17,183 nt of DNA from NCBI GenBank assembly GCA_964643685.1, contig CAZXTN010000010.1, positions 1 to 17,183 on the forward strand, written 5' to 3'. Positions 1-17,183 of this stretch are shown here, piece after piece; positions within the stretch are counted from its first letter, which is position 1, and every line of letters begins with the position of its first letter. The DNA is from Candidatus Micrarchaeota archaeon. GTDB lineage: Archaea > B1Sed10-29 > JAJRYS01. A program made the translations under genes and the position numbers. Below the pieces are notes generated by a model. That model was given only the letters and a program-made list of their open reading frames with translations, did no database searches and was not told where the DNA came from.

Positions 1-1370
1 TTTTCAAATTTTTCACGAATTCTCCTGCTTACCTTAAACTTCCTTGCTTCTTTTTTCAAAAACCTGCTGCTGAAGTAAAAGTAATTTGAGTCAATTGAGC
101 CAGCAACTTTTCTGTAAAAAGCGCTTTTAGACTTTCTTCTTTCAACAAAACCCTTATACAAAATTCTCCTCTTGTCCTCAACACCATCATAAAAACCCAT
201 TTCCTCATGAGAACTCTTAATATCAGAAGGCAAAGTTACAGTCGCATCAAATTTAGTTAAAGCATTAAACCCCCTGCCATAACCCAAGTCATACAAAACA
301 TTCTTCTTCTTGTTAGAATAACTAATCTGCTTCAAATAATCTTCAAAATCCTCTTTTTTCTGCTTTGAATGAAAGTAACTATTCTGCAAAAAAGTCCCAG
401 CCATCTCACCTACATAAGTTCCAATTTCATAACCCTCACGAACCAACAGCCCCTTGCTCCCTAAACCCAAAGCCATAGTTCCAATAATGCTTCCCGCAGC
501 ACCAAAAACAAAAGGCAAAGGATAACTTAAAAAATAATTAGAGTAGCCTTCAACAAACTCACCTAACTTATTATCCAGCAACAAAGAACTTCCTTCAGAA
601 GTAAAAGCATACCTCAAGTAAATAGGCACGTTCAGCTTGCCTAAAATAGTCAATTCATTAGCTTCAATAAAAGACTCATAAGCAACCTCCCCCAGCTCGC
701 TTAAATGCTCAAAACCACCTGACTTTCTCTTACCCAGCAAAACATCCCTCTTCTTCAAAAGCCCCTTGTTAACCTCGTCATACTTAAGAAACATATTGCT
801 CTTATTCAAACTCCAATAATCATCTCCAAAACCGCTTCCTAAAAACTTACCTCCACTGTCCTTAAACCTCCATACCCCTGAATCCAAGCCACTTCCTTCA
901 AAAACACTTTCATTCAATTCACTTTCCTTAAACTCTCCTCTCTGCAAAACACTCTCTCTATTTTTCAAACCCCTGAAACCCCCTCTCTTCAAACTTCTCC
1001 TATTAAGAGCCAAGACATTAGAAAACCATTTTTTAAAACCAGAACCATGCACATCAACTTCTGATTCAAAGCCCCTGACTCCAAACATTCTCCCATGATA
1101 AACCACTGCCCCTAGTACAACTATGTTAATTAAAACAGCAGTTGGAATCACAGGCAAAATAGGTGGAAATCCAGAAACAGGGCGATTAAGCTTATAAGCG
1201 CTTGTGCTTGAAGAAAAAAAAGTCAAAGCGCTTCCCCCTCCATCCTCCAAAAAACTTGAGGAAAGAAGATGTATTAATGCAAGCGAAAAAAAAGCCAAAA
1301 AAATGAAAAAAACCAAGCTTTTCCTCCGCTTCAATCTCCCCTTCTTCAAATCAATTTCATCATTTTTCAT
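1..1370 (-). CDS. Hypothetical membrane protein, partial (456 codons visible, runs off the left edge)
   Basis: My manual translation shows an open frame from ATG at 1370 to base 3 with no stop (MKNDEIDLKKGRLKRRKSLVFFIFLAFFSLALIHLLSS...KVSRRIREKFE). An in-frame TAA at 1397-1395 bounds it upstream, and the SD-like GGGGTGCGGAGGT precedes the ATG. It has two N-terminal hydrophobic segments and a Gly-rich segment (FVFGAAGSIIGTMALGLG). It is absent from the ORF track, presumably because no stop lies in the window. Confidence 0.85.
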   Translation of the reverse strand, partial: MKNDEIDLKKGRLKRRKSLVFFIFLAFFSLALIHLLSSSFLEDGGGSALTFFSSSTSAYKLNRPVSGFPPILPVIPTAVLINIVVLGAVVYHGRMFGVRGFESEVDVHGSGFKKWFSNVLALNRRSLKRGGFRGLKNRESVLQRGEFKESELNESVFEGSGLDSGVWRFKDSGGKFLGSGFGDDYWSLNKSNMFLKYDEVNKGLLKKRDVLLGKRKSGGFEHLSELGEVAYESFIEANELTILGKLNVPIYLRYAFTSEGSSLLLDNKLGEFVEGYSNYFLSYPLPFVFGAAGSIIGTMALGLGSKGLLVREGYEIGTYVGEMAGTFLQNSYFHSKQKKEDFEDYLKQISYSNKKKNVLYDLGYGRGFNALTKFDATVTLPSDIKSSHEEMGFYDGVEDKRRILYKGFVERRKSKSAFYRKVAGSIDSNYFYFSSRFLKKEARKFKVSRRIREKFE

Positions 1371-7930: not shown

Positions 7931-9325
7931 TCAATTGTTCCATTGGCTTTGCCATGAGCCAGTGTCCTCTTCTTCAACATTTCCTCCACTGCCCCCTAAC
8001 TTGTCCATCAACTCCTCCTTGTACTTGTAAGCAACCAACCCTATTATTACAACAACAAGCAACGCAATTAATTTAAAATTATAACTGCTTCCGCTGCTTA
8101 TGACGCAGGAACTCCAATGCCCGTTGACGCATGTCTTGTAACCTGTCTGGGTTCCTACAACGCAGGTTATTTTGTGCCCGTTAGTGCATGAAGAAACTGA
8201 ATATGAGTTAATGCTTGAATTAATTTCCTTAATTAAAGAATCAATGCTTGAAAAATTAGCTTTAACTGCTTCGCAGTCTTCAAGCACTTTTTCACTGCAA
8301 TCCTCGTTTCCTTTTTCAATCAAGTCATGCAATTCAATCATTTTAGAATTAATGTCATTATAAGAAGCTGGAATGCCTTTTGAATCAATTTGGTTTCCAA
8401 GCAAAGTGTAAGTAGCTGAGTAATTGTTCAGCGTTTGTATTACTTCATCAATTACTGTTGAATCGCTTGTTGAATCCACTCTATCAAGCAAGTTGACATA
8501 AAACTGACTTACTTTCGTGTCCATTCCATTGAAAAAATCATCAATCACTTTCTTGTTAGAAGTTAAAGTATCTTGTTTTGACACCACTGCATCGCTTAAA
8601 CCACTGTGAGTAGTGTAAGTAAGTATGCTGTCTCTTGTTGACTGGTCAATTTCCCCATCAGTGAACATTTGCCCGACTTCAGCATGCAAGTCATTTGACT
8701 TCTCAACAACATTGTTTAAAGAATCAAGGAAACTTTTTTCTTTTGAAAAAACGCTTCTGAATCCATTCTGCACTTTTGCCACGTCTTCAAAAGAACCTAA
8801 ACTGCTTAATTCCCCCTGCAAGCTTGTTATAGCACTTCTTAAAGAATCAGCGTTGCTGATTCCAGCGCTTAAAGCGCTTTTATAAGAAGACTCGCTTGAA
8901 ATAGTTACATTCAAATAAGGGTCAATGTATGTTTCCAGGTTTGTTTTTTTAGTTTCCAAGTCGCTTCTCTGATGCTGGACAAAAGACAATAAATTATCAA
9001 GAAAATTGCTGAAACTATCGTCAGTTGCAAAAAAGTTAGCCAAGTAATGCGCTTTCATCACATCCTTTGCGCTTGACTCGTAAAACAAGTCCCCAGTGTC
9101 AGCATCAACTGGAATCATGAATTGAATGCTTCCAACTGACTTGACTTCAAAAACCCAGTACTTGTTAGAGCCGTAATAAGTCAAAGCATTTGGCTTCAAA
9201 TCCAAACTTTCTCCTTCAGAGTACTTCACGTACTTTAAAGCAGTTTTGTAACAATCATTATAAGTCACTGCACTGAAAACAGAAACGCTTAAAATTAAAA
9301 TTAATGCCAAGAACTTGAACTTCAT
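7931..9325 (-). CDS. Hypothetical secreted, C-terminally membrane-anchored surface protein
   Basis: Signal peptide MKFKFLALILILSVSVFSA, a PepSY-like stretch (YWVFEV...IPVDADTGDL), a long helical middle, a Cys-rich module (CTNGHKITC...GYKTCVNGHWSSC), a TM helix (LIALLVVVIIGLVAY) and an acidic/Trp tail. Confidence 0.85.
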   Translation of the reverse strand: MKFKFLALILILSVSVFSAVTYNDCYKTALKYVKYSEGESLDLKPNALTYYGSNKYWVFEVKSVGSIQFMIPVDADTGDLFYESSAKDVMKAHYLANFFATDDSFSNFLDNLLSFVQHQRSDLETKKTNLETYIDPYLNVTISSESSYKSALSAGISNADSLRSAITSLQGELSSLGSFEDVAKVQNGFRSVFSKEKSFLDSLNNVVEKSNDLHAEVGQMFTDGEIDQSTRDSILTYTTHSGLSDAVVSKQDTLTSNKKVIDDFFNGMDTKVSQFYVNLLDRVDSTSDSTVIDEVIQTLNNYSATYTLLGNQIDSKGIPASYNDINSKMIELHDLIEKGNEDCSEKVLEDCEAVKANFSSIDSLIKEINSSINSYSVSSCTNGHKITCVVGTQTGYKTCVNGHWSSCVISSGSSYNFKLIALLVVVIIGLVAYKYKEELMDKLGGSGGNVEEEDTGSWQSQWNN

Positions 9326-9338
9326 CTTTAATCACTTA

Positions 9339-12008
9339 TCACTTTTTAAAAACTTCTTCAGCCTTTTTAAAAGCTTCTTCTGCCTTTTCCCTGAGCTTTC
9401 CTCCTCCTTTAACTTCCCTGCCTACTGTTCCTGCTTTTCCTCCGAACACTTCAACTGCTTTCTCCACAGCTTCTTTCACTTCAACTTTGCTGTCCTCCCC
9501 TTTTATTCCAAACACAACTCCCCTTCCAATTAGGATAATTGACTTATCCTTATTTTTTTCAACAAATTCTCTTCCTATTTTTTGAAGAACGCCCATGTTG
9601 TCAGTGTCAATAAAATTAACCCCTTCCTTGGCTTCAAAATTCAACTCCTTCTTTTCCTTTCTTTTCTTTTTCAATTCCTTTTTTAAAATGCTTTCAAGCT
9701 CTTCAATTGATTCTTTACTAAATTTAAAAGAAGGGTTTAAAGCAGTTATTTTCTTAATTAAAGCGTTTACTTTTTTCAAATGCTCTTCTCTTTCTTTTTG
9801 CAAAGCTTCTTCAATTGCTTTTTTACCAGCTACGAATTCAATCCTCACAACCCCATCTTGTATTTTTTTGCTTCTAAGTATCTTTATTTTTTCAATTTCT
9901 CTTGTTGAATTCACATGAGTTCCTCCGCATGCTTCAATGTCCCAGTCCTTGATTTCAACTATCCTTATTTCAGTTGCTGGAACAGCTCCTCCTTGGTAAA
10001 TGCGGAAGCCGTAAGCATCTTCAGCTTCTTTCCTAGTCATTGTTTTTTTAATTACTTCACGGTTTTCAAACACGACTCTGTTGCTCAATTCTTCAATCTG
10101 CTTTCTCTGTTCTTCAGTCAAGTTCTCATAATGAGTAATGTCCAAATGCGCTTTGCTTGTTTTTTTCTCTGCTCCTGCTTGCCACACATGGTTTCCGAGG
10201 ATTCTTTTCGCAGCTCCGTTTATGACATGAGTTGCAGTGTGCATTTTAGCCAGCCTCTGCCTCCTTTCCCTGTCAACTTTGCATAAGACAAGGCTTCCCT
10301 TCTGCAGTTTCCTCCCCCTTACTTCGTGAACTATCACGTCGCCTACTTTGAAAACGTCAACTACTTCCAGGTTATCTATGAATCCAGTGTCATGCTCTTG
10401 CCCGCCGCTGGTTGGATAAAAAGCAGTCCTATCCAAAATGATGTAATGCTTGCCTTTTTTTTCAAAGTCGTCTTTTACATAAGCCTTGAATTCAAACACG
10501 TCGTCGTAGAATAATTTTTCAGTTGGGTTAAATTCTAAGTTGAATTCAGTTTCTTTTTCCTCTTTGTTTTTCTTGTTTTTCTTCTTTTCTTCTGAAATGA
10601 AAGTGTAAAATTGCTCGCTGTCAGGCACTTTCGCTCCTGGCACTATTTCTCTTATCAAATCAGGAGTCACTCCGTTTTCCTCATACATCTTCTTCATCTG
10701 TTCAAGTGAAACTTCTTCATCTTCTCTTATCTTGTTTTTGATGAATTTCTTTGTTTTTTCAAGAGAAGAATAATACTTCTTTTTTTCAACTTCAAGTATT
10801 TTTTTAACATCCTCAATGCCATCAATCAATTCAGGATATAATGGATACAGGTACTCGGCGTGCCTTTCAGCCAATTCGCCCATGTCAAAATCAAAGCCAT
10901 GCTTGTCAATAAGAGCCTGGGCTCTTCTGAAAATAACCCTTAAATTGTATCCTCCTCCGACATTGCTTGGAAGCATGCCGTCATAAATTGCCATCAGCAA
11001 GCTTCTTGAATGGTCTGCTATTGCGTAGATTGCCTGCATCGGCTCAACATTTTTCATCAATTCATCAATGCTTATTTCAAGCTCTTCAGCTATTTTTTTC
11101 CTAGCGCCTTCTACATTTTTAACTTCGTCAATATTCAATCTTCCAGCTAAGAGAGAATACCTGTTGAAAATATCTTCATCTATGCTTACTTGTTTTTTCA
11201 TTTCTTCAATCAAGTCGCCGAACACGCTGTCATACAAAGTATTAGAACCATTCACGAACCATGTTATTCTTTCCAAGCCCCAGCCTACGTCAATTACTTT
11301 CTTGCTAAGCTCCTCCCTTTTTCCATTCACGTTCCTGAACTGCATGAATACGTTGGTGCTTAATTCAAGCCCCCTTGCAAATGTTTCTAAACAAGGCCCG
11401 TAGACGCTTAAGTCAGGCATTGCCCACACATCCTCGCTGTAAGTTATCTCCTTCAGATCCAAGCCAACTACCTTAGTTAAAAAATCCATGTTCAATCTAG
11501 TGCACTCGTTTATCCAATAATCATCATACGCATGCTGTCCAGCCATTATGAAGCCAGTTAAATGCCTGCCTGTTACTCCAACGTTCCCAATGTCACCGAA
11601 CCTCAAGCAAAACTGAGGAACAACAAGCCTTTTTTCTGGGAAAGAAAAAACAGTGCCGTTTTTTTCTATTCTTTGAAAGTCAACTATGCTTGCTATTGTA
11701 AAATCAAGGTTAGGGTTCCATTTTGCCACTACAGGGTATCTTTTGATTGACGCGTGGTTGTTTTTTTTGAAGAATTTTTCATAAGCCATCCATGTTTCAA
11801 TCAAGTCCCAGTTTTGAAGCTTGTTTCCTATGAATTGGTAATCTTCGCAGTCGCCGCATACGTTCCTGTTTTCATCAGCTGTCCAGAACCAGTTTCCGCA
11901 TTGTTTGCATTGTTTTCGCTGAAAACCTCTTTCCTTGAATACAGGCAAGTCGTAGTATTTCTGCCAGTTTTCACTGAACTCTTTTTTCAGTATTGGATTT
12001 GATGCCAT
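9339..12008 (-). CDS. alaS: Alanine--tRNA ligase, archaeal type
   Basis: N-terminal CKQCGNWFWT, FTIASIVDFQ, NVGVTGRH, IDVGWGLER, IADHSR, editing motifs HTATH and CGGTH, and a Gly-rich C-Ala end. Confidence 0.98.
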   Translation of the reverse strand: MASNPILKKEFSENWQKYYDLPVFKERGFQRKQCKQCGNWFWTADENRNVCGDCEDYQFIGNKLQNWDLIETWMAYEKFFKKNNHASIKRYPVVAKWNPNLDFTIASIVDFQRIEKNGTVFSFPEKRLVVPQFCLRFGDIGNVGVTGRHLTGFIMAGQHAYDDYWINECTRLNMDFLTKVVGLDLKEITYSEDVWAMPDLSVYGPCLETFARGLELSTNVFMQFRNVNGKREELSKKVIDVGWGLERITWFVNGSNTLYDSVFGDLIEEMKKQVSIDEDIFNRYSLLAGRLNIDEVKNVEGARKKIAEELEISIDELMKNVEPMQAIYAIADHSRSLLMAIYDGMLPSNVGGGYNLRVIFRRAQALIDKHGFDFDMGELAERHAEYLYPLYPELIDGIEDVKKILEVEKKKYYSSLEKTKKFIKNKIREDEEVSLEQMKKMYEENGVTPDLIREIVPGAKVPDSEQFYTFISEEKKKNKKNKEEKETEFNLEFNPTEKLFYDDVFEFKAYVKDDFEKKGKHYIILDRTAFYPTSGGQEHDTGFIDNLEVVDVFKVGDVIVHEVRGRKLQKGSLVLCKVDRERRQRLAKMHTATHVINGAAKRILGNHVWQAGAEKKTSKAHLDITHYENLTEEQRKQIEELSNRVVFENREVIKKTMTRKEAEDAYGFRIYQGGAVPATEIRIVEIKDWDIEACGGTHVNSTREIEKIKILRSKKIQDGVVRIEFVAGKKAIEEALQKEREEHLKKVNALIKKITALNPSFKFSKESIEELESILKKELKKKRKEKKELNFEAKEGVNFIDTDNMGVLQKIGREFVEKNKDKSIILIGRGVVFGIKGEDSKVEVKEAVEKAVEVFGGKAGTVGREVKGGGKLREKAEEAFKKAEEVFKK

Positions 12009-12121: not shown

Positions 12122-12147
12122 TTTTTAAATACTAAATTCCTTAATTA
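12122..12147 (+). promoter_or_regulatory. Probable promoter of the basic coiled-coil gene
   Basis: TTTTTAAA-N10-CTTAATTA. Confidence 0.5.
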
Positions 12148-12169: not shown

Positions 12170-13114
12170 ATGTTTAAAATGAATATGGAAAGAATAAGAA
12201 GAGCTAAAAACTTTTTCAAATTTAGGAATAAGATAGCTCCGGGACAAAAAGAAATTAAACTTATGGAAAGAAGGCAGGAGCTTCTTAGGCAAAGGAGCAA
12301 TTTAATCCTAGAAAGGGCAGTTAGAGAAGCTCAGACAATGAGATTAACTGAATTTAGCAGAAGAGCAAGAACAAAACACCTTGTTAGAAAATTTCTGAAC
12401 TCCAAGATAAGAGAATTAGAAGAGAGAGGATTGCCTACTGAAAAATTAAAAGAAAGATTAAAGCATGTAGATGAAATTACTTCTAATCTTATGCGCTTGC
12501 CTCAAGTTAGGAACGAAATAGGCATTCAGAAATCACAGCTTTATGACCGTGAAAAAACTGCAAAGCAAGAAGCAAGAAAGGCCAGAGAATTTGACAAAAA
12601 AGTAGCAACTTTAGGGTTATTTGCTTCTCCTGTAACAGCAGGTGCTTCTTTGAGTTTAGCAGCGGGTATAATTTTAGCTGATGAAGGAGAAATAGCTGCT
12701 AAAAAAATAACAGAATTAGGAGAAGTGCAACGTGCTTCTGAAGAAAGAACAGGAAACCCAAAATACCGTTTAAAAGAAATTAATAAAGAATTAAGAAGAA
12801 TTGGGAAAAATAGAAGAGCTATAGAGGCACGTAATGAAAAAGAACAGGCAGAAGGGGAAGCGCAGAAAAGTGTAAGAAAAGGGACAAGAAGCGAACAAGA
12901 AGCTTATGAAAGAGCTGTGAGGAGATTAGGGCGTAATCCTAAATCATTGCAAGAAGCACTTATTCATGGAGGCATGCCTGAAAGGGCAAGAGAAATAATT
13001 TATGCTAGAAAAGCAGAGGATTATTATAAAATAAGAGGAATTAAGCCGACAGATGAGCAATTAGGGTCATTTATTTTACAAATGAAAAAGCAGGAAAAAA
13101 AGTATTTACATTAA
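12170..13114 (+). CDS. Hypothetical basic coiled-coil protein with central Gly/Ala hydrophobic segment (paralog of 16264..17007)
   Basis: Arg/Lys/Glu-rich helical sequence around VATLGLFASPVTAGASLSLAAGIILA, with clear similarity to the 247-aa ORF. The start is uncertain (TTG 12167, ATG 12170, 12179 or 12185). Confidence 0.85.
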   Translation: MFKMNMERIRRAKNFFKFRNKIAPGQKEIKLMERRQELLRQRSNLILERAVREAQTMRLTEFSRRARTKHLVRKFLNSKIRELEERGLPTEKLKERLKHVDEITSNLMRLPQVRNEIGIQKSQLYDREKTAKQEARKAREFDKKVATLGLFASPVTAGASLSLAAGIILADEGEIAAKKITELGEVQRASEERTGNPKYRLKEINKELRRIGKNRRAIEARNEKEQAEGEAQKSVRKGTRSEQEAYERAVRRLGRNPKSLQEALIHGGMPERAREIIYARKAEDYYKIRGIKPTDEQLGSFILQMKKQEKKYLH

Positions 13115-13120
13115 TAAAAC

Positions 13121-13149
13121 TTTTTCTTTTTTCAGCTGGATTCTGAAAA
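13121..13149. terminator. Probable terminator between convergent genes
   Basis: T-tract TTTTTCTTTTTT just after the 13114 stop, overlapping the inverted repeat TTTTCAG-7nt-CTGAAAA. Confidence 0.5.
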
Positions 13150-13166
13150 GCAATATGGATTTAGTT

Positions 13167-13886
13167 TTATTCTAACCTGTACTTTTTTAAAATGTTGTCA
13201 ATTGTTTTTTTAGGCACTCCTAGTATTTCTCTTATTTCAGTTGGTTTCTTGCCTTCTTTCAGAAGATTTCTTACTGCATTTTCAACTGTCGGGGCTCTTC
13301 CTTTTGGAATAAGAGGAGGTAATCCTTTTTGCAGCCTTTCCTCATTTAGTTGCACTATTCTGTCATTGATGTTAATTACTTCTCCTCCTCTTCCCCCATA
13401 CTCTGTTCTAGAAAGAATTTTAAATTCAGGCATTTTTTCAACTAGTTCTTCAACTGCTCCTTTTTTTATGTTTAATCCTAAATTATGCATTTCATCTTGT
13501 ATTCTTCTGACAGATAAGGCTTTGCCTTCTCTGATTATGTTGATACAAGCGTTTAAAAAAGTAGTTTCTATGTTGTTAAATTCCTTAATTTTCACTGCTT
13601 CAATTTGCTTTTGCTCATTTCTTTTAATGTCATACAAGGAAAAGTTTGCTTTTTCAGACATTTCTTTTAAAATTTTTTCAAGTAAAAACCTGTTCACTGA
13701 ATTCAAGCCATACTCCTGCTTGATTAATTGTTCAATCTGTTCTTTTTTCGTCAGATTATTTCTCTTTGCTTTTTTTGCAATGGAGTGAATCAACTTATCT
13801 AAAGCACTTGTTCCTGAATAATCATTTGCCTTCTTTTTCACTTCCCCTTTTTTTAAAACAATCCTTTTTTCATTTTTCATAAGCAT
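13167..13886 (-). CDS. Hypothetical basic multi-HTH DNA-binding protein (paralog 3 of tandem trio)
   Basis: C-terminal HTH VRNLLKEGKKPTEIREILGVPKKTIDNILKK and central REGKALSVRRIQDEM module. Aligns by eye with the two upstream ORFs. Confidence 0.8.
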   Translation of the reverse strand: MLMKNEKRIVLKKGEVKKKANDYSGTSALDKLIHSIAKKAKRNNLTKKEQIEQLIKQEYGLNSVNRFLLEKILKEMSEKANFSLYDIKRNEQKQIEAVKIKEFNNIETTFLNACINIIREGKALSVRRIQDEMHNLGLNIKKGAVEELVEKMPEFKILSRTEYGGRGGEVININDRIVQLNEERLQKGLPPLIPKGRAPTVENAVRNLLKEGKKPTEIREILGVPKKTIDNILKKYRLE

Positions 13887-13894
13887 GTCTTTTT

Positions 13895-14629
13895 TTACAA
13901 GTCAATTAATTCCCTAACTCTCTTATCTGTAAGCTTAAGCATTTTTTTTATTTCCTTTAATGAATGTCCTTCTGACTTCAGTTTCAAAATAGCATATTTC
14001 AACCTCGGTTCAACTTCAACTCCACGGTCTCTTTTCTTAATTAAGTTAACTCCTTCTCCTGTCTTATAAAACTCCTTCTGTAATTTGAGCACTCTGTCAA
14101 TGCTTGGCTCACGCCTGGTTAAATAATCAGAGTAAAGATTTTCAACTATAATGAAAGGCAAATCCTTCTCCCTTACTGTCTTTTTAACCCATTTAGTATT
14201 AACTTTAAATCCATAATCCTTTTTCATTTTATGCACAATGCGCCTATAAGAAGGCATTTCACCCTTTGCAAGAAAGCCATAACACGTTTCTATAAGTGCA
14301 GCTTGTTTTTCATCAAAATGAGTTGAGTACTTCAAGCCCTTTTCCTCAAGCATTTTCGCAATCTTTTCATCGCTTGGCTTCACGCTTTTAACACTTATAA
14401 ACTCATTTATTTTTTTGCCTGACTCCTGCTTTATCTTGTCAATGACTTTCTGATTAACTGTTTTAAGGTTAGGGAACTTCTTTTTAACCAACTGCTTTAT
14501 CTCTTCATCTGTTCTTAAATTCTTCCTAAAAGCTTCTTCTGAAAATTCCCTTATTAAATTCTTCCAGTTAGCATATTGCCTGGTTCTTGCTGCCTTCTTA
14601 CGCCCTGCCTTCTCTGGTTTGCGTTTCAT
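13895..14629 (-). CDS. Hypothetical basic multi-HTH DNA-binding protein (paralog 2 of tandem trio)
   Basis: Central KGEMPSYRRIVHKMKKDYGFKVNTKWVKKTVRE and C-terminal LKSEGHSLKEIKKMLKLTDKRVRELI HTH-like modules. Confidence 0.8.
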   Translation of the reverse strand: MKRKPEKAGRKKAARTRQYANWKNLIREFSEEAFRKNLRTDEEIKQLVKKKFPNLKTVNQKVIDKIKQESGKKINEFISVKSVKPSDEKIAKMLEEKGLKYSTHFDEKQAALIETCYGFLAKGEMPSYRRIVHKMKKDYGFKVNTKWVKKTVREKDLPFIIVENLYSDYLTRREPSIDRVLKLQKEFYKTGEGVNLIKKRDRGVEVEPRLKYAILKLKSEGHSLKEIKKMLKLTDKRVRELIDL

Positions 14630-14662
14630 ATGCCTCAGCTCTGCTTACTTTTAAAAAAAATT

Positions 14663-15382
14663 TCACTGTTCTTTGTTTAACTTTTTTCTTGCTTCATTAA
14701 TTTCCTTCTGTGAAAAACCCAAAGTCCTCCTCAGCCAAGAGTCACTTGCCTTCCTTCTTAAAAAAAATTTCAAAGCTTCTTTTGGGTCAGGAATCTTGCC
14801 TTTTGCAACAATAAGAGGCTCCCCGCTCTCAAGCCTCCTTTTAGTTTCCTGAAGTATGCTATCTTCTATTAAATAAACATTAGAGATATTGCCTGATTTT
14901 CTGCCAACTGTCCCTTTTTCCAAAACAACTAAGCCCAAATCCTCTCTTTCCATAAAATTAGCAACCCACCTCCTAGACACTTTTACACCATAGTCCTCCA
15001 TTTTTTCAGTAACACGATTTAAAGTAGGCATCTTACCTTCTCTAAGCAAAGCAAAATAAGCGTTGTAAAGAGCGGAGGTAGTTTTGTCATAACGTTTCTT
15101 TCTAACCATTTCTCCATTTTCAACTTCATACAAATAAAGCCTAGATGGATTCTTAATTTCCCTAACTACCTTTCTAACTATGTTGCTATTCACATTTTTA
15201 AGCCCGTACTTCTTCTTTAAATAACCCTCTACTTCCTTTTCACTTGACTTTCCTAAAGCAGACAACTCCTCAGCTGCTTTTTCAATAAGCTTATTTAAAT
15301 CCCCTGCTTTTGAAACAGAAGAAGCCTCAGCTTTAACTGACTCCTTCTTCTTTGCATTTTTAACTCTCCTAGAAATACTCAT
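14663..15382 (-). CDS. Hypothetical basic multi-HTH DNA-binding protein (paralog 1 of tandem trio)
   Basis: Central REGKMPTLNRVTEKMEDYGVKVSRRWVANFMERE and C-terminal SDSWLRRTLGFSQKEINEA. Shares LxKLI, YGLxxVN and PLIxKG with 13167..13886. Confidence 0.8.
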   Translation of the reverse strand: MSISRRVKNAKKKESVKAEASSVSKAGDLNKLIEKAAEELSALGKSSEKEVEGYLKKKYGLKNVNSNIVRKVVREIKNPSRLYLYEVENGEMVRKKRYDKTTSALYNAYFALLREGKMPTLNRVTEKMEDYGVKVSRRWVANFMEREDLGLVVLEKGTVGRKSGNISNVYLIEDSILQETKRRLESGEPLIVAKGKIPDPKEALKFFLRRKASDSWLRRTLGFSQKEINEARKKLNKEQ

Positions 15383-15399
15383 TAAAAACCACTTTAAAT

Positions 15400-15425
15400 T
15401 AATTAAGAAAAAACAGCTTTAAAAA
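15400..15425 (-). promoter_or_regulatory. Probable promoter of the multi-HTH operon
   Basis: Minus-strand TTTTTAAA-N10-CTTAATTA, followed by an SD-like GTGGT before ATG 15382. Confidence 0.5.
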
Positions 15426-15527
15426 CAAATGCCTGTTTAGAAACAAATTAACTTTTCAAACCGCTTAAATTAAATTAAGCAACTGCTTCAAAAAAACATG
15501 GTAATTGAAAAATAGGTGATTTAAAAA

Positions 15528-16193
15528 ATGACAGAAGAAACAAAAGCAATGCCTTTACTAGGGGAAAAATTCCCAAACATTACTGTTCAAACCACTCACG
15601 GCGAAAAAAACCTGCCAGGAGACTACGAAGGCAAATGGTTCGTGTTATTCAGCCACCCAGCTGACTTCACGCCAGTATGCACAACTGAATTCGTAGCATT
15701 CCAAAAAAGATTTGACAAATTCAAAGAACTAAACACTGAACTAATCGGCTTAAGCATTGACCAAGTATTCAGCCACATCAAATGGGTTGAATGGATAAAA
15801 GAAAAACTAGGCATTGAAATACAATTTCCAGTAATAGCAGATGACACAGGCACAGTGGCAAAAACACTCGGGTTAATCCACCCAAGCAAAGGAACAAACA
15901 CAGTAAGAGCAGTATTCATAGTAGATCCAAGCTCAACAATCAGATTAGTTTTGTATTACCCTCAGGAAGTAGGCAGGAACATGGATGAAATACTAAGGGC
16001 AGTTGAAGCACTTCAAAAATCAGATGAAAAACAAGTAGCAATCCCAGCAAACTGGCCTAACAACGAATTAGTAGGAGACCATGTAATTATTCCACCTGCA
16101 AGCGATGAAAAAACAGCTAAACAACGCTTGGAACAAGCAGCTTCAGGGGAGATTGAATGCTTTGACTGGTGGCTATGCCACAAAAAAGCATAA
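15528..16193 (+). CDS. Peroxiredoxin (Prx6/TDXH archaeal-type thioredoxin peroxidase)
   Basis: [12 protein letters not shown] peroxidatic Cys motif, [14 protein letters not shown] and C-terminal CFDWWLC. SD AGGTGA at 15514-15519. Confidence 0.97.
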
Positions 16194-16209
16194 AAAACAA
16201 GACAATAAA

Positions 16210-16234
16210 AAAAGAAGCTTTAGAAGCTTCTTTT
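16210..16234. terminator. Bidirectional hairpin terminator between convergent genes
   Basis: Perfect inverted repeat AAAAGAAGCTT-TAG-AAGCTTCTTTT, with A-tracts on the left and T-tracts on the right. Confidence 0.7.
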
Positions 16235-16263
16235 ACTTTGACTTTTTTTAAAAAAGAGTTGTT

Positions 16264-17007
16264 TTAAGCTGTTTTCTTTTTTGCCATTTTTCTCCTTTTT
16301 TCCTCCTTTTTCAACTGCTCATTAATCTCTTTAATCCTAGCATCAAACTTTTTCTGCAATTCTTTTATTGTTTCCTGAGATTCTTTCAGTTTATAATGTG
16401 CTTTTATTAAAGGTTCTCCGCTTGCATATGCAGCCATTCCTGCACCTAAACCAAATAAAGAAGGGTCCTCTGCAATCGCCATTAATTCAGAACCCATTCC
16501 CATCAACGTGACTCTAGTTACCGTCGATAAATTTCCTAATGGTCTAGAAGGATCTTTTTCTCCAAAATTAAAAGCTCTTTCATACTCTTGTTCAAATTTT
16601 TGCTTTTGACTATTTCTTTCTCTAAGAGCATTTTCTGAATTCATAATTTTATAAACTATTTTATCAATACTTTTTAATTGTTTTTCAATAGGAGCAGTTG
16701 GCTTACCTCTTTTCTTATTAAATTTAATCATATTATTTAAGTAATCTTTAACTGCTTTTTCAACTTTTCTTGCTCTTTTTGATTCTGACAACCTGTAAGT
16801 CTGAGCTTCAAGCAAACCTCTTTGTAAAATAAGCTGGTTTCTTTCAAGTTCTAATAATTCATTTTTGTTCATTTTTGTTTTATACCCTTGTTTTGTCTTA
16901 ACCATTTTAGCTCTTTTACCAGGAGGAACAAAACCACCCCTTTTTCCTTCTTGATACTCAATTAATCTTCTGGCATTTTCAAGACGTTTTTTACGAGAAC
17001 CTAACAT
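16264..17007 (-). CDS. Hypothetical basic coiled-coil protein with central Gly/Ala hydrophobic segment (paralog of 12170..13114)
   Basis: NQLILQRGLLEAQTYRLSESKRAR vs SNLILERAVREAQTMRLTEFSRRAR, RGKPT vs RGLPT, and RIKEINEQL vs RLKEINKEL. SD GGGGTG at 17013-17018 and TATA TTTTATAA at 17055-17062. Confidence 0.85.
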   Translation of the reverse strand: MLGSRKKRLENARRLIEYQEGKRGGFVPPGKRAKMVKTKQGYKTKMNKNELLELERNQLILQRGLLEAQTYRLSESKRARKVEKAVKDYLNNMIKFNKKRGKPTAPIEKQLKSIDKIVYKIMNSENALRERNSQKQKFEQEYERAFNFGEKDPSRPLGNLSTVTRVTLMGMGSELMAIAEDPSLFGLGAGMAAYASGEPLIKAHYKLKESQETIKELQKKFDARIKEINEQLKKEEKRRKMAKKKTA

Positions 17008-17094
17008 TCTAACACCCCATAAATATTATAATTTTATTTAAAGGAAAATAAACTTTATAAAACAGTAGTTTAAGCTTAAATTAATTAAAATCAA

Positions 17095-17183
17095 TCACTT
17101 TAACTTTTTTTCAAGCCATAAAGCAGGGCTGTTTTTCCATTCATTTTCCTTAAAGCCAATGAAATCAAAACCGTTTTTCAACA
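17095..17183 (-). CDS. C-terminal fragment of a probable GNAT-family acetyltransferase
   Basis: Manual translation ...LKNGFDFIGFKENEWKNSPALWLEKKLK* resembles the GNAT C-terminal KxGF...(M/L)EKKL pattern. Only 29 codons are visible. Confidence 0.6.
   Translation of the reverse strand, partial: LKNGFDFIGFKENEWKNSPALWLEKKLK

Follow-up and report, generated by a model that had tools for sequence, protein, structure and literature searches.

Ultra-small archaea of the DPANN type carry many genes without known relatives, and how these genes bear on a host-dependent lifestyle is uncertain. The described proteins closest to those treated here are built from small helix-turn-helix (HTH) modules: strings of HTH or winged-HTH (wHTH) units form the N-terminal heads of IS630/Tc1-mariner-type transposases, HTH_23 (PF13384) units occur in uniform tandem arrays, and winged helices are found in Fur, Orc1/Cdc6, MCM, TopoVI-A and TrmB-type proteins. 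DUF948 and ApoL-like proteins, in turn, are helical proteins with a hydrophobic segment. Here we describe a block of six genes, five of which belong to two families that we call H (H1, H2 and H3) and CC (CC1 and CC2), on a contig of a Candidatus Micrarchaeota archaeon (CAZXTN010000010.1, assembly GCA_964643685.1; C10 below). The window that we analysed is this entire 17,183-bp contig, which comes from a 695-kb genome in 12 contigs estimated to be 92% complete, and whose gene content is archaeal (MCM, an archaeal-type alanyl-tRNA synthetase (AlaRS), PyrBI and TrmB-like regulators).

A first-pass annotation of this DNA had proposed that the block is an undescribed system, in which two inward-facing basic coiled-coil paralogs enclose three multi-HTH paralogs. 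Our analysis upholds the two families and mainly tempers the claim of a new 'system', since we lean, with modest confidence, towards two separate lineage-specific families that happen to be neighbours.

Two families of basic proteins beside alaS

Five of the six genes in the block fall into two paralog families without a name, as had been read from the sequence. H1, H2 and H3 are mutually 26–27% identical in full-length alignment, and with H2 as a whole-genome query, the other two H genes were recovered at E-values of 1.8e-9 and 2.3e-7; a profile search of the same genome returned exactly three H genes, all inside the block. CC1 and CC2 are 29% identical over 203 columns (E = 2e-14), and a third copy, CC3 (195 aa), is found on contig C3 (hmmsearch with a two-sequence profile, E = 2e-11), so that CC1, CC2 and CC3 are the three CC genes that profile searching finds in the genome. 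All five block proteins score below the cut-off of every Pfam family, and the H proteins also below those of NCBIfam, PHROG and PADLOC models. The sixth gene is unrelated to both families and encodes a 1-Cys peroxiredoxin (Prx; AhpC-TSA 111.2 bits against a cut-off of 26, 1-cysPrx_C 41.4 bits against 21.1).

The H and CC proteins of the block contain 21–26% lysine plus arginine and have isoelectric points (pI) of 9.8–10.4 (10.1–10.4 in the CC proteins), and the basic N-termini quoted in the first-pass annotation are present. This character is only partly distinctive, because the entire predicted proteome is basic, with a median pI of 9.1 and a pI above 9.7 in 25% of the 706 proteins called from open reading frames (ORFs). 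In the layout of the block (Table 1), CC1 converges on H1, and Prx converges on CC2 across a hairpin. H3, H2 and H1 probably form a single operon, as they are separated by only 33 bp (H3 to H2) and 8 bp (H2 to H1).

Modular architecture and narrow distribution of the H proteins

A model of H1 generated with AlphaFold2 (AF2) from a five-sequence alignment (mean predicted local distance difference test score, pLDDT, 70.5) consists of a disordered tail and three helical modules, in agreement with the multi-HTH build proposed earlier. The first module is followed by a poorly modelled linker, the middle one is winged-helix-like (DSSP: helices 105–119, 126–135 and 142–151, strands 163–166 and 169–172), and a connecting helix leads from it to the C-terminal, HTH_23-like module. 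In an exhaustive structural comparison of this model using VIA, the top 50 rows span residues 93–160, and most of them are winged-helix DNA binders at Z 5.5–7.0, including TopoVI-A, Fur and the winged helices of Orc/Cdc6 and MCM; the best matches of the middle module reach Z 6–7 with a root-mean-square deviation (rmsd) of ~2 Å over 55–62 residues, where VIA flags any Z below 8 as possibly a mere common arrangement. AlphaFold modelling followed by Foldseek, the route indicated in the first-pass annotation, produced helical models of H1 and CC2, but against the PDB neither model had a match at E ≤ 0.001, and H1 had no whole-chain match. The H1 model suggests a winged-helix fold for the middle module, at fold level only, and the H proteins are predicted to bind DNA.

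The sub-threshold sequence matches of the H proteins are all to HTHs of transposase, invertase, sigma or terminase type. HTH_23 scored 19.4 bits in H1 against a cut-off of 24.6 (E = 9.4e-4, residues 208–237), short of family membership, and gave no row at E ≤ 1 for H2 or H3 in Pfam; the other Pfam hints are HTH_SB, HTH_29, HTH_33, HTH_21 and HTH_Tnp_Tc5. Further matches below cut-off are to IS630, IS1 and DNA invertase, and to a terminase small subunit for the H unit of genome G004 (described below); the IS630 model of NCBIfam reached 16.9 bits against a 100-bit cut-off, over residues 206–237 only, which does not make H a transposase. The ESM Atlas, queried with H1, returned leads, all under 0.9, that included some HTH_23 clusters.

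When 1.84 billion representative proteins were searched exhaustively with the H profile in HMMER, 15 were returned at E ≤ 0.001, six of them at E ≤ 1e-10. These six are H1, H2 and H3, a 682-aa protein of G004, and two metagenomic proteins of 239 and 289 aa (P0007 and P0008). In the remaining nine (P0009–P0017), only the C-terminal HTH was matched, several times in each, and the four that we scanned are tandem HTH_23 arrays (E = 1e-14 to 4e-49). A word-indexed protein search with the H alignment gave self matches only, and among 401 archaeal genomes the H profile matches two, the archaeon's own and G004, which belongs to the same family and a different genus. The 682-aa ORF of G004 comprises an H unit, a charged helical linker of ~200 aa and a second H unit; this fusion of two units hints at H units acting as pairs or as larger assemblies. 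A weak match of JetA to the helical linker of this fusion (E = 0.0014) was the only PADLOC row. Judged from sequence, H is a new, unnamed and lineage-confined family, a very narrow three-module variant of putative HTH DNA binders.

Other candidate relatives were not accepted. A profile match in the PDB to 8vd6_A, 'CAP repeat' (E = 6.7e-19; five repeats with an i-E of ~0.01 each), was dismissed as evidence of homology, as this is a designed protein; the portion of PMC12339374 that concerns 8VD6 describes it as a de novo designed repeat protein. Similarly, neither a 30-residue match in genome G020 (E = 4.2e-4) nor a partial match in G009, a genome of the same order, was accepted as a family member. 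The G009 protein (806 aa; L016, G009:C3, 370–2790, minus strand) has a basic N-terminus and many wHTH-like units, and aligns weakly with H profile positions 39–146 (E = 1.4e-4 genome-wide). It is present in one of the 31 genomes of the phylum, being absent even from a congener, and may be a distant, equally fast-evolving relative of H.

CC proteins form an orphan family with a hydrophobic stretch

CC1, CC2 and CC3 have in common a basic N-terminal region, an RG(L/K)PT motif, a Gly/Ala-rich hydrophobic stretch of 25–35 residues with (S/D)P at its centre, and a basic C-terminal helix. In CC1 (pI 10.35), the motif reads RGLPT, the hydrophobic segment lies at residues ~146–170, and a unique C-terminal extension of 100 aa is present. 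The maximal Kyte-Doolittle hydropathy over 19 residues is 1.63 in CC1, 1.1 in CC2 and 1.9 in CC3. Since both flanks of the stretch carry a net positive charge, it is probably cytoplasmic, either monotopic or self-associating, and not membrane-spanning. What stands of the membrane interaction proposed in the first-pass annotation is this moderately hydrophobic segment, the sole basis of the proposal.

The AF2 model of CC2 is all-helical, with a pLDDT of 63 that falls below 50 across the hydrophobic segment (residues 155–204), and 'coiled coil' serves here as a provisional label. Matches to described families stayed under their cut-offs: DUF948 (PF06103) scored 20.1 bits in CC2 against 37.2 (E = 7e-4, residues 198–237), and ApoL (PF05461) scored 11.8 bits in CC1 against 25.9 (E = 0.16), and neither assigns the proteins to a family. 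For CC2, VIA returned generic helical hairpins only (Z 7.3–9.1), and the ESM Atlas gave no usable feature match.

A three-sequence CC profile found the family in one of the 31 genomes of the phylum, namely the archaeon's own. Word-indexed protein searches with the CC alignment and with residues 40–190 of CC1 returned self matches only; such searches are weak for low-complexity sequence, and the one with the CC alignment, in which the best 8000 candidates by shared words were scored, missed CC3 itself and therefore has poor sensitivity. CC3 has rpl10e on one side and, on the other, an Sm-like gene next to minD; H genes are absent from its vicinity, and its slot beside rpl10e is empty in five relatives (G001–G004 and G006). 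As far as these searches reach, CC is a genus-restricted orphan family.

AT-rich motifs shared by upstream regions

The composite promoter element reported in the first-pass annotation, a TATA-like TTTTTAAA followed after ten nucleotides by CTTAATTA (TTTTTAAA-N10-CTTAATTA), is indeed exact before both CC1 and H3, its sole two genome copies; it was singled out only once the sequence had been inspected. As a background, an exact in-register match of 8 nt or more is found in 237 of 101,926 pairs of TTTTTAAA sites (0.23%). A second motif, the 13-mer TTAAATTAATTAA, has three genome copies, the third of which lies within a coding region on contig C1, so that those before H3 and CC2 are the only intergenic ones. 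Sequences of 13 or more nucleotides are shared by 0.49% of all upstream pairs and by 34 of 3822 close pairs. By local alignment, the upstream regions of CC1 and H3 are outside each other's top 6 of ~700. Because several pairs were available to choose from and both motifs were selected with hindsight, these AT-rich motifs are suggestive only, permitting co-regulation without establishing it. A perfect palindrome, CTTAATTAAG, occurs inside the coding region of H2; over 18 nt, it and its flanks show 94% complementarity to 15394–15411, the H3 promoter site.

The block occupies a variable synteny gap

The block starts at alaS, as had been noted, and this is where conserved synteny ends in the comparison with G004 and with the related genome G001. 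To the left, the order MCM, a 464-aa gene, alaS is conserved in G004, and the 464-aa gene and alaS in G001. Beyond alaS, G001 carries one unrelated 415-aa gene and then, directly, orthologues of the rio, HAD-KH and topoVI genes of our contig C7. The right end of C10 (17129–17183) and the start of C7 overlap by 55 bp at 100% identity, and the left end of C10 (1–55) overlaps the start of contig C2 in reverse by exactly 55 identical bases, which gives the contig order C2(rev)-C10-C7, the right-hand join being backed by the synteny of G001.

The CC genes do lie at the two ends of the block in inverted orientation, but the right-hand 'boundary' of the first-pass annotation is set 176 bp from the end of a contig that makes up the entire window. 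The true right-hand neighbour is an acetyltransferase-like gene that continues on C7 (L039:3-413), presumably a GNAT by our reading of the sequence rather than by a family search. Past it, C7 encodes a small membrane protein, an M16-like protein, NrdG, an intein-bearing NrdD, a RIO kinase, a HAD-KH protein and topoisomerase VI, gene names that were read from ORF translations and not from family searches. With the window Prx as the query, no Prx homolog was found in four genomes of the same family. As the relatives differ beyond alaS and lack a detected Prx, the block occupies a variable synteny gap between alaS and the rio/topoVI genes. Contigs assembled from four DNA runs yielded fragmentary identical pieces of the window and a diverged relative over its housekeeping genes, and are uninformative on the block.

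Throughout the genome, 45 paralog families cover 123 of 682 genes, and 14 of these families have members no more than five genes apart. The pattern at the block fits a variable part of the genome in which tandem duplication is locally frequent.

Several further features of the assembly were observed. A tandem pair of TrmB-type winged-helix genes on the same contig, overlapping by 4 bp, encodes full-length paralogs at 27% identity (E = 1e-31), another deeply diverged tandem duplication. The 464-aa protein between MCM and alaS, conserved within a housekeeping run, has no Pfam match and is 35% identical to its counterpart in G004 and 33% to the one next to alaS in G001. A 456-aa ORF that runs off the left contig end, also without a Pfam match, has a basic N-terminus, a hydrophobic stretch and many Gly/Ser/Phe-rich segments, and strand GC skew is strong in its region (-0.54). 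C1:75876-101373 is repeated at 99.95% identity by contig C8 (25.8 kb), which reflects either redundancy in the assembly or a large duplication that happened very recently. Finally, the anaerobic ribonucleotide reductase gene on C7 (L039, 3317–6415, minus strand; 1032 aa) is matched by relatives only at residues ~25–295 and 613–1015, leaving ~318 central residues that resemble an intein.

Table 1 Features of the window, with modules of the H1 protein given in residues
Feature	Position	Strand	Basis and remarks
456-aa ORF	3-1370	-	off left contig end
TrmB-type gene, 318 aa	3029-3985	+	first of tandem pair
TrmB-type gene, 309 aa	3982-4911	+	second of tandem pair
464-aa gene	7931-9325	-	between MCM and alaS
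AlaRS	9339-12008	-	ORF
Composite TTTTTAAA-N10-CTTAATTA before CC1	12122-12147	+	exact; 23 nt before ATG
CC1, 314 aa	12170-13114	+	ORF; also opens at TTG 12167
H1, 239 aa	13167-13886	-	ORF
H2, 244 aa	13895-14629	-	ORF; paralog of H1 and H3
Palindrome CTTAATTAAG	14036-14045		inside H2
H3, 239 aa	14663-15382	-	leads same-strand H3-H2-H1 run
13-mer TTAAATTAATTAA, H3 upstream copy	15394-15406	+	between TATA-like box and ATG
Composite TTTTTAAA-N10-CTTAATTA before H3	15400-15425	-	exact; TTTTTAAA 15425-15418, CTTAATTA 15407-15400
1-Cys peroxiredoxin (Prx)	15528-16193	+	Pfam
Palindromic hairpin, 11-bp stem	16210-16234	.	terminator-like on both strands; between converging Prx and CC2
CC2, 247 aa	16264-17007	-	ORF; paralog of CC1
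13-mer TTAAATTAATTAA, second intergenic copy	17076-17088	+	69 nt before CC2 start; 7 nt past acetyltransferase-like stop
Acetyltransferase-like gene, 3' end	17095-17183	-	ORF; stop codon read by hand
H1 Lys/Arg-rich disordered tail	residues 1-26		AF2
H1 three-helix module	residues 27-77		AF2
H1 winged-helix-like module, three helices and beta-hairpin	residues 105-172		AF2
H1 HTH_23-like three-helix HTH	residues 201-238		AF2 and sub-cut-off Pfam

Competing explanations for the block

The reading that we favour, at a likelihood a little above even, is that H and CC are two independent lineage-specific families, neighbours rather than an obligate two-part system, with H acting as regulators with or without control over the CC genes. 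On this view, the ~0.7-Mb archaeal genome has a gap that is prone to rearrangement, and the block is an accessory, lineage-specific patch of 5 kb within it, made up of two unrelated, fast-evolving and locally duplicated families. The three deeply diverged H paralogs, each with a disordered Lys/Arg tail, a three-helix bundle, a winged helix and an HTH_23-like HTH, would act as multimeric, sequence-specific transcription regulators and would probably occupy sites of the AT-rich CTTAATTA(A) type that cover their own start region. The hydrophobic stretch of CC would dip into the cytoplasmic face of the membrane or drive self-association while the basic helices stay cytoplasmic, and the H regulon may include CC1 and CC2, which would not need to bind H.

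Several points weigh against this. DNA binding and regulation by the H proteins and membrane contact by CC are steps that we infer; the winged-helix Z scores of H1 (6–7) fall in the range that VIA flags, and the CC2 model is poor, most of all in its hydrophobic segment. The exact TTTTTAAA-N10-CTTAATTA composite is rarer than chance, and TTAAATTAATTAA is common to the H3 and CC2 upstream regions. Neither family was found outside one narrow lineage, in which they lie side by side and inward-facing, a pattern that a functional link would explain more simply. In addition, the comparison covers a single other H-bearing genome, G004, with the genomic contexts of P0007 and P0008 lying outside it.

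The motifs, the layout and the shared lineage are also the case for H and CC as one co-regulated functional unit, in which, for example, a membrane-attached CC recruits or sequesters the multi-HTH binders as a chromosome-membrane tether or a membrane-gated regulator, with a shared CTTAATTA(A) operator driving all of the genes. Adjacency and inward-facing layout, the two motifs and their rarity, the restriction of both families to one family-level lineage, and the basic flanks on both sides of the CC hydrophobic segment would all be accounted for. The distribution of the families speaks for separation: G004, which is 90% complete, has H as a fusion without a detectable CC, the linker of this fusion is not CC-like (best E 0.16–0.19), and CC3 stands away from any H gene. 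The single CC-H module of the first-pass annotation, against which a lack of co-occurrence elsewhere was to count, is thereby weakened, softly, as the profile searches found no joint case outside this genome among very few cases of either family (H in two archaeal genomes, CC in one genome of the phylum). Moreover, neither CC1 nor H3 has the other's upstream region among its closest, the background of 13-mer sharing leaves several pairs to choose from, an unrelated peroxiredoxin lies inside the block, and local paralog clusters such as the TrmB-like pair on this contig are common in the genome. A prediction of the H1-CC1 complex, with each protein entered as an alignment, scored 0.00 against a mark of 0.32 and, run without controls, is evidence neither way. 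Overall, we consider a single unit doubtful. Its boldest form, a self-regulated lineage-specific module in which H sits on AT-rich CTTAATTA(A) operators and a monotopic, highly basic CC draws it to the cytoplasmic face of the membrane or lets it go, seems to us quite unlikely; if true, it would be a new membrane-coupled gene switch or chromosome-membrane tether, invented in one ultra-small symbiotic branch of the archaea.

A decayed integrated mobile element or virus, with the H genes descending from transposases or terminase small subunits by way of their DNA-binding heads, and the CC genes encoding structural or membrane proteins of the element, would fit the variable synteny gap, the transposase, invertase or terminase type of all sub-threshold H hints, and the species-restricted, fast-evolving nature of the families, to which the weakly related G009 protein (in one of 31 genomes) may be added. 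Every named H hint is under its family cut-off, however, as are all Pfam matches of the five block proteins, and the matches listed for the nine other window proteins scanned include none of integrase or transposase type. The window contains no tRNA gene and no Rfam match, the block has no long direct or inverted terminal repeats, and its GC content (0.31–0.37) is like that of the rest of the contig. No relatives were found in IMG/VR scans or in tblastn searches of phages and plasmids, and scans of metagenome, viral and genome contigs gave no loci. We therefore judge a mobile remnant decidedly unlikely.

A toxin or defence cassette, also raised in the first-pass annotation, in which the CC proteins, with long helices on either side of a hydrophobic hairpin, would be helical toxins that form pores or disrupt membranes, and the H proteins their repressors or antitoxins, is very improbable: it could draw on the Gly/Ala-rich segment between long helices, the sub-threshold ApoL and DUF948 matches, the adjacent HTH proteins and the appearance of ClyA and PaxB among the Foldseek rows for CC2 (4phq_D and 6ek4_B), but these rows have E-values of 2.9–3.2 and TM scores below 0.2 in a model with pLDDT under 50 in the hydrophobic segment and are indistinguishable from other helical proteins, PADLOC-DB 2.0 gave no family at E ≤ 0.01 for CC1, CC2, CC3, H1, H2 or H3, CC3 sits beside ribosomal-protein genes without any regulator, and the sizes (195–315 aa for CC, three HTH proteins of 240 aa) are unlike those of toxin-antitoxin pairs.

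We also set aside the idea of a nucleoid protein: a histone-fold gene is present above its cut-off, Alba was not found in the 92% complete genome, and no evident gap is left for a substitute chromatin protein to fill. None of the evidence indicates a defence, toxin or mobile system of a known kind.

The patch is a clean example of a three-module putative DNA-binding family duplicating, diverging to ~26% identity and even fusing within one family-level lineage, with the very basic, helical CC proteins, as restricted as H, encoded beside it. Should the H proteins act as regulators, the 0.7-Mb genome would have in them some of its few lineage-specific transcription factors, whose targets would merit identification.

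Comparison with known systems

The CC proteins resemble DUF948 and ApoL-like proteins in their long helices and single Gly/Ala-rich hydrophobic stretch, and differ from them in that their scores are under the cut-offs and the matches cover only helical, coiled-coil-like parts. For the H proteins, the weak hints from HTH_SB, HTH_29, HTH_33, HTH_Tnp_Tc5 and IS630 point to the IS630/Tc1-mariner group, with whose transposase heads they share the string of small modules; in contrast to these transposases, H proteins (239–244 aa) have no DDE domain and end right after the last HTH, and no terminal inverted repeats were found. The winged-helix domains of Fur, Orc1/Cdc6, MCM, TopoVI-A and TrmB-type proteins superpose on residues ~103–172 of H1 (Z 5.5–7.0, rmsd 1.8–3.5 Å over 51–72 residues) at 8–20% identity, but H lacks the effector or dimerisation domain of these families, and its winged-helix-like module is embedded between two helical modules. 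HTH_23 offers further likenesses: the C-terminal module of H (~201–238) carries the 'EGK..(E)I...LG....I' helix-turn-helix pattern, the middle module has, by our own reading of the alignment, a similar 'EGK.PS' turn, and proteins with arrays of three to eight such repeats are drawn in by the H family profile. Such arrays consist of uniform repeats, whereas H joins three different modules, a winged helix among them, behind a basic tail.

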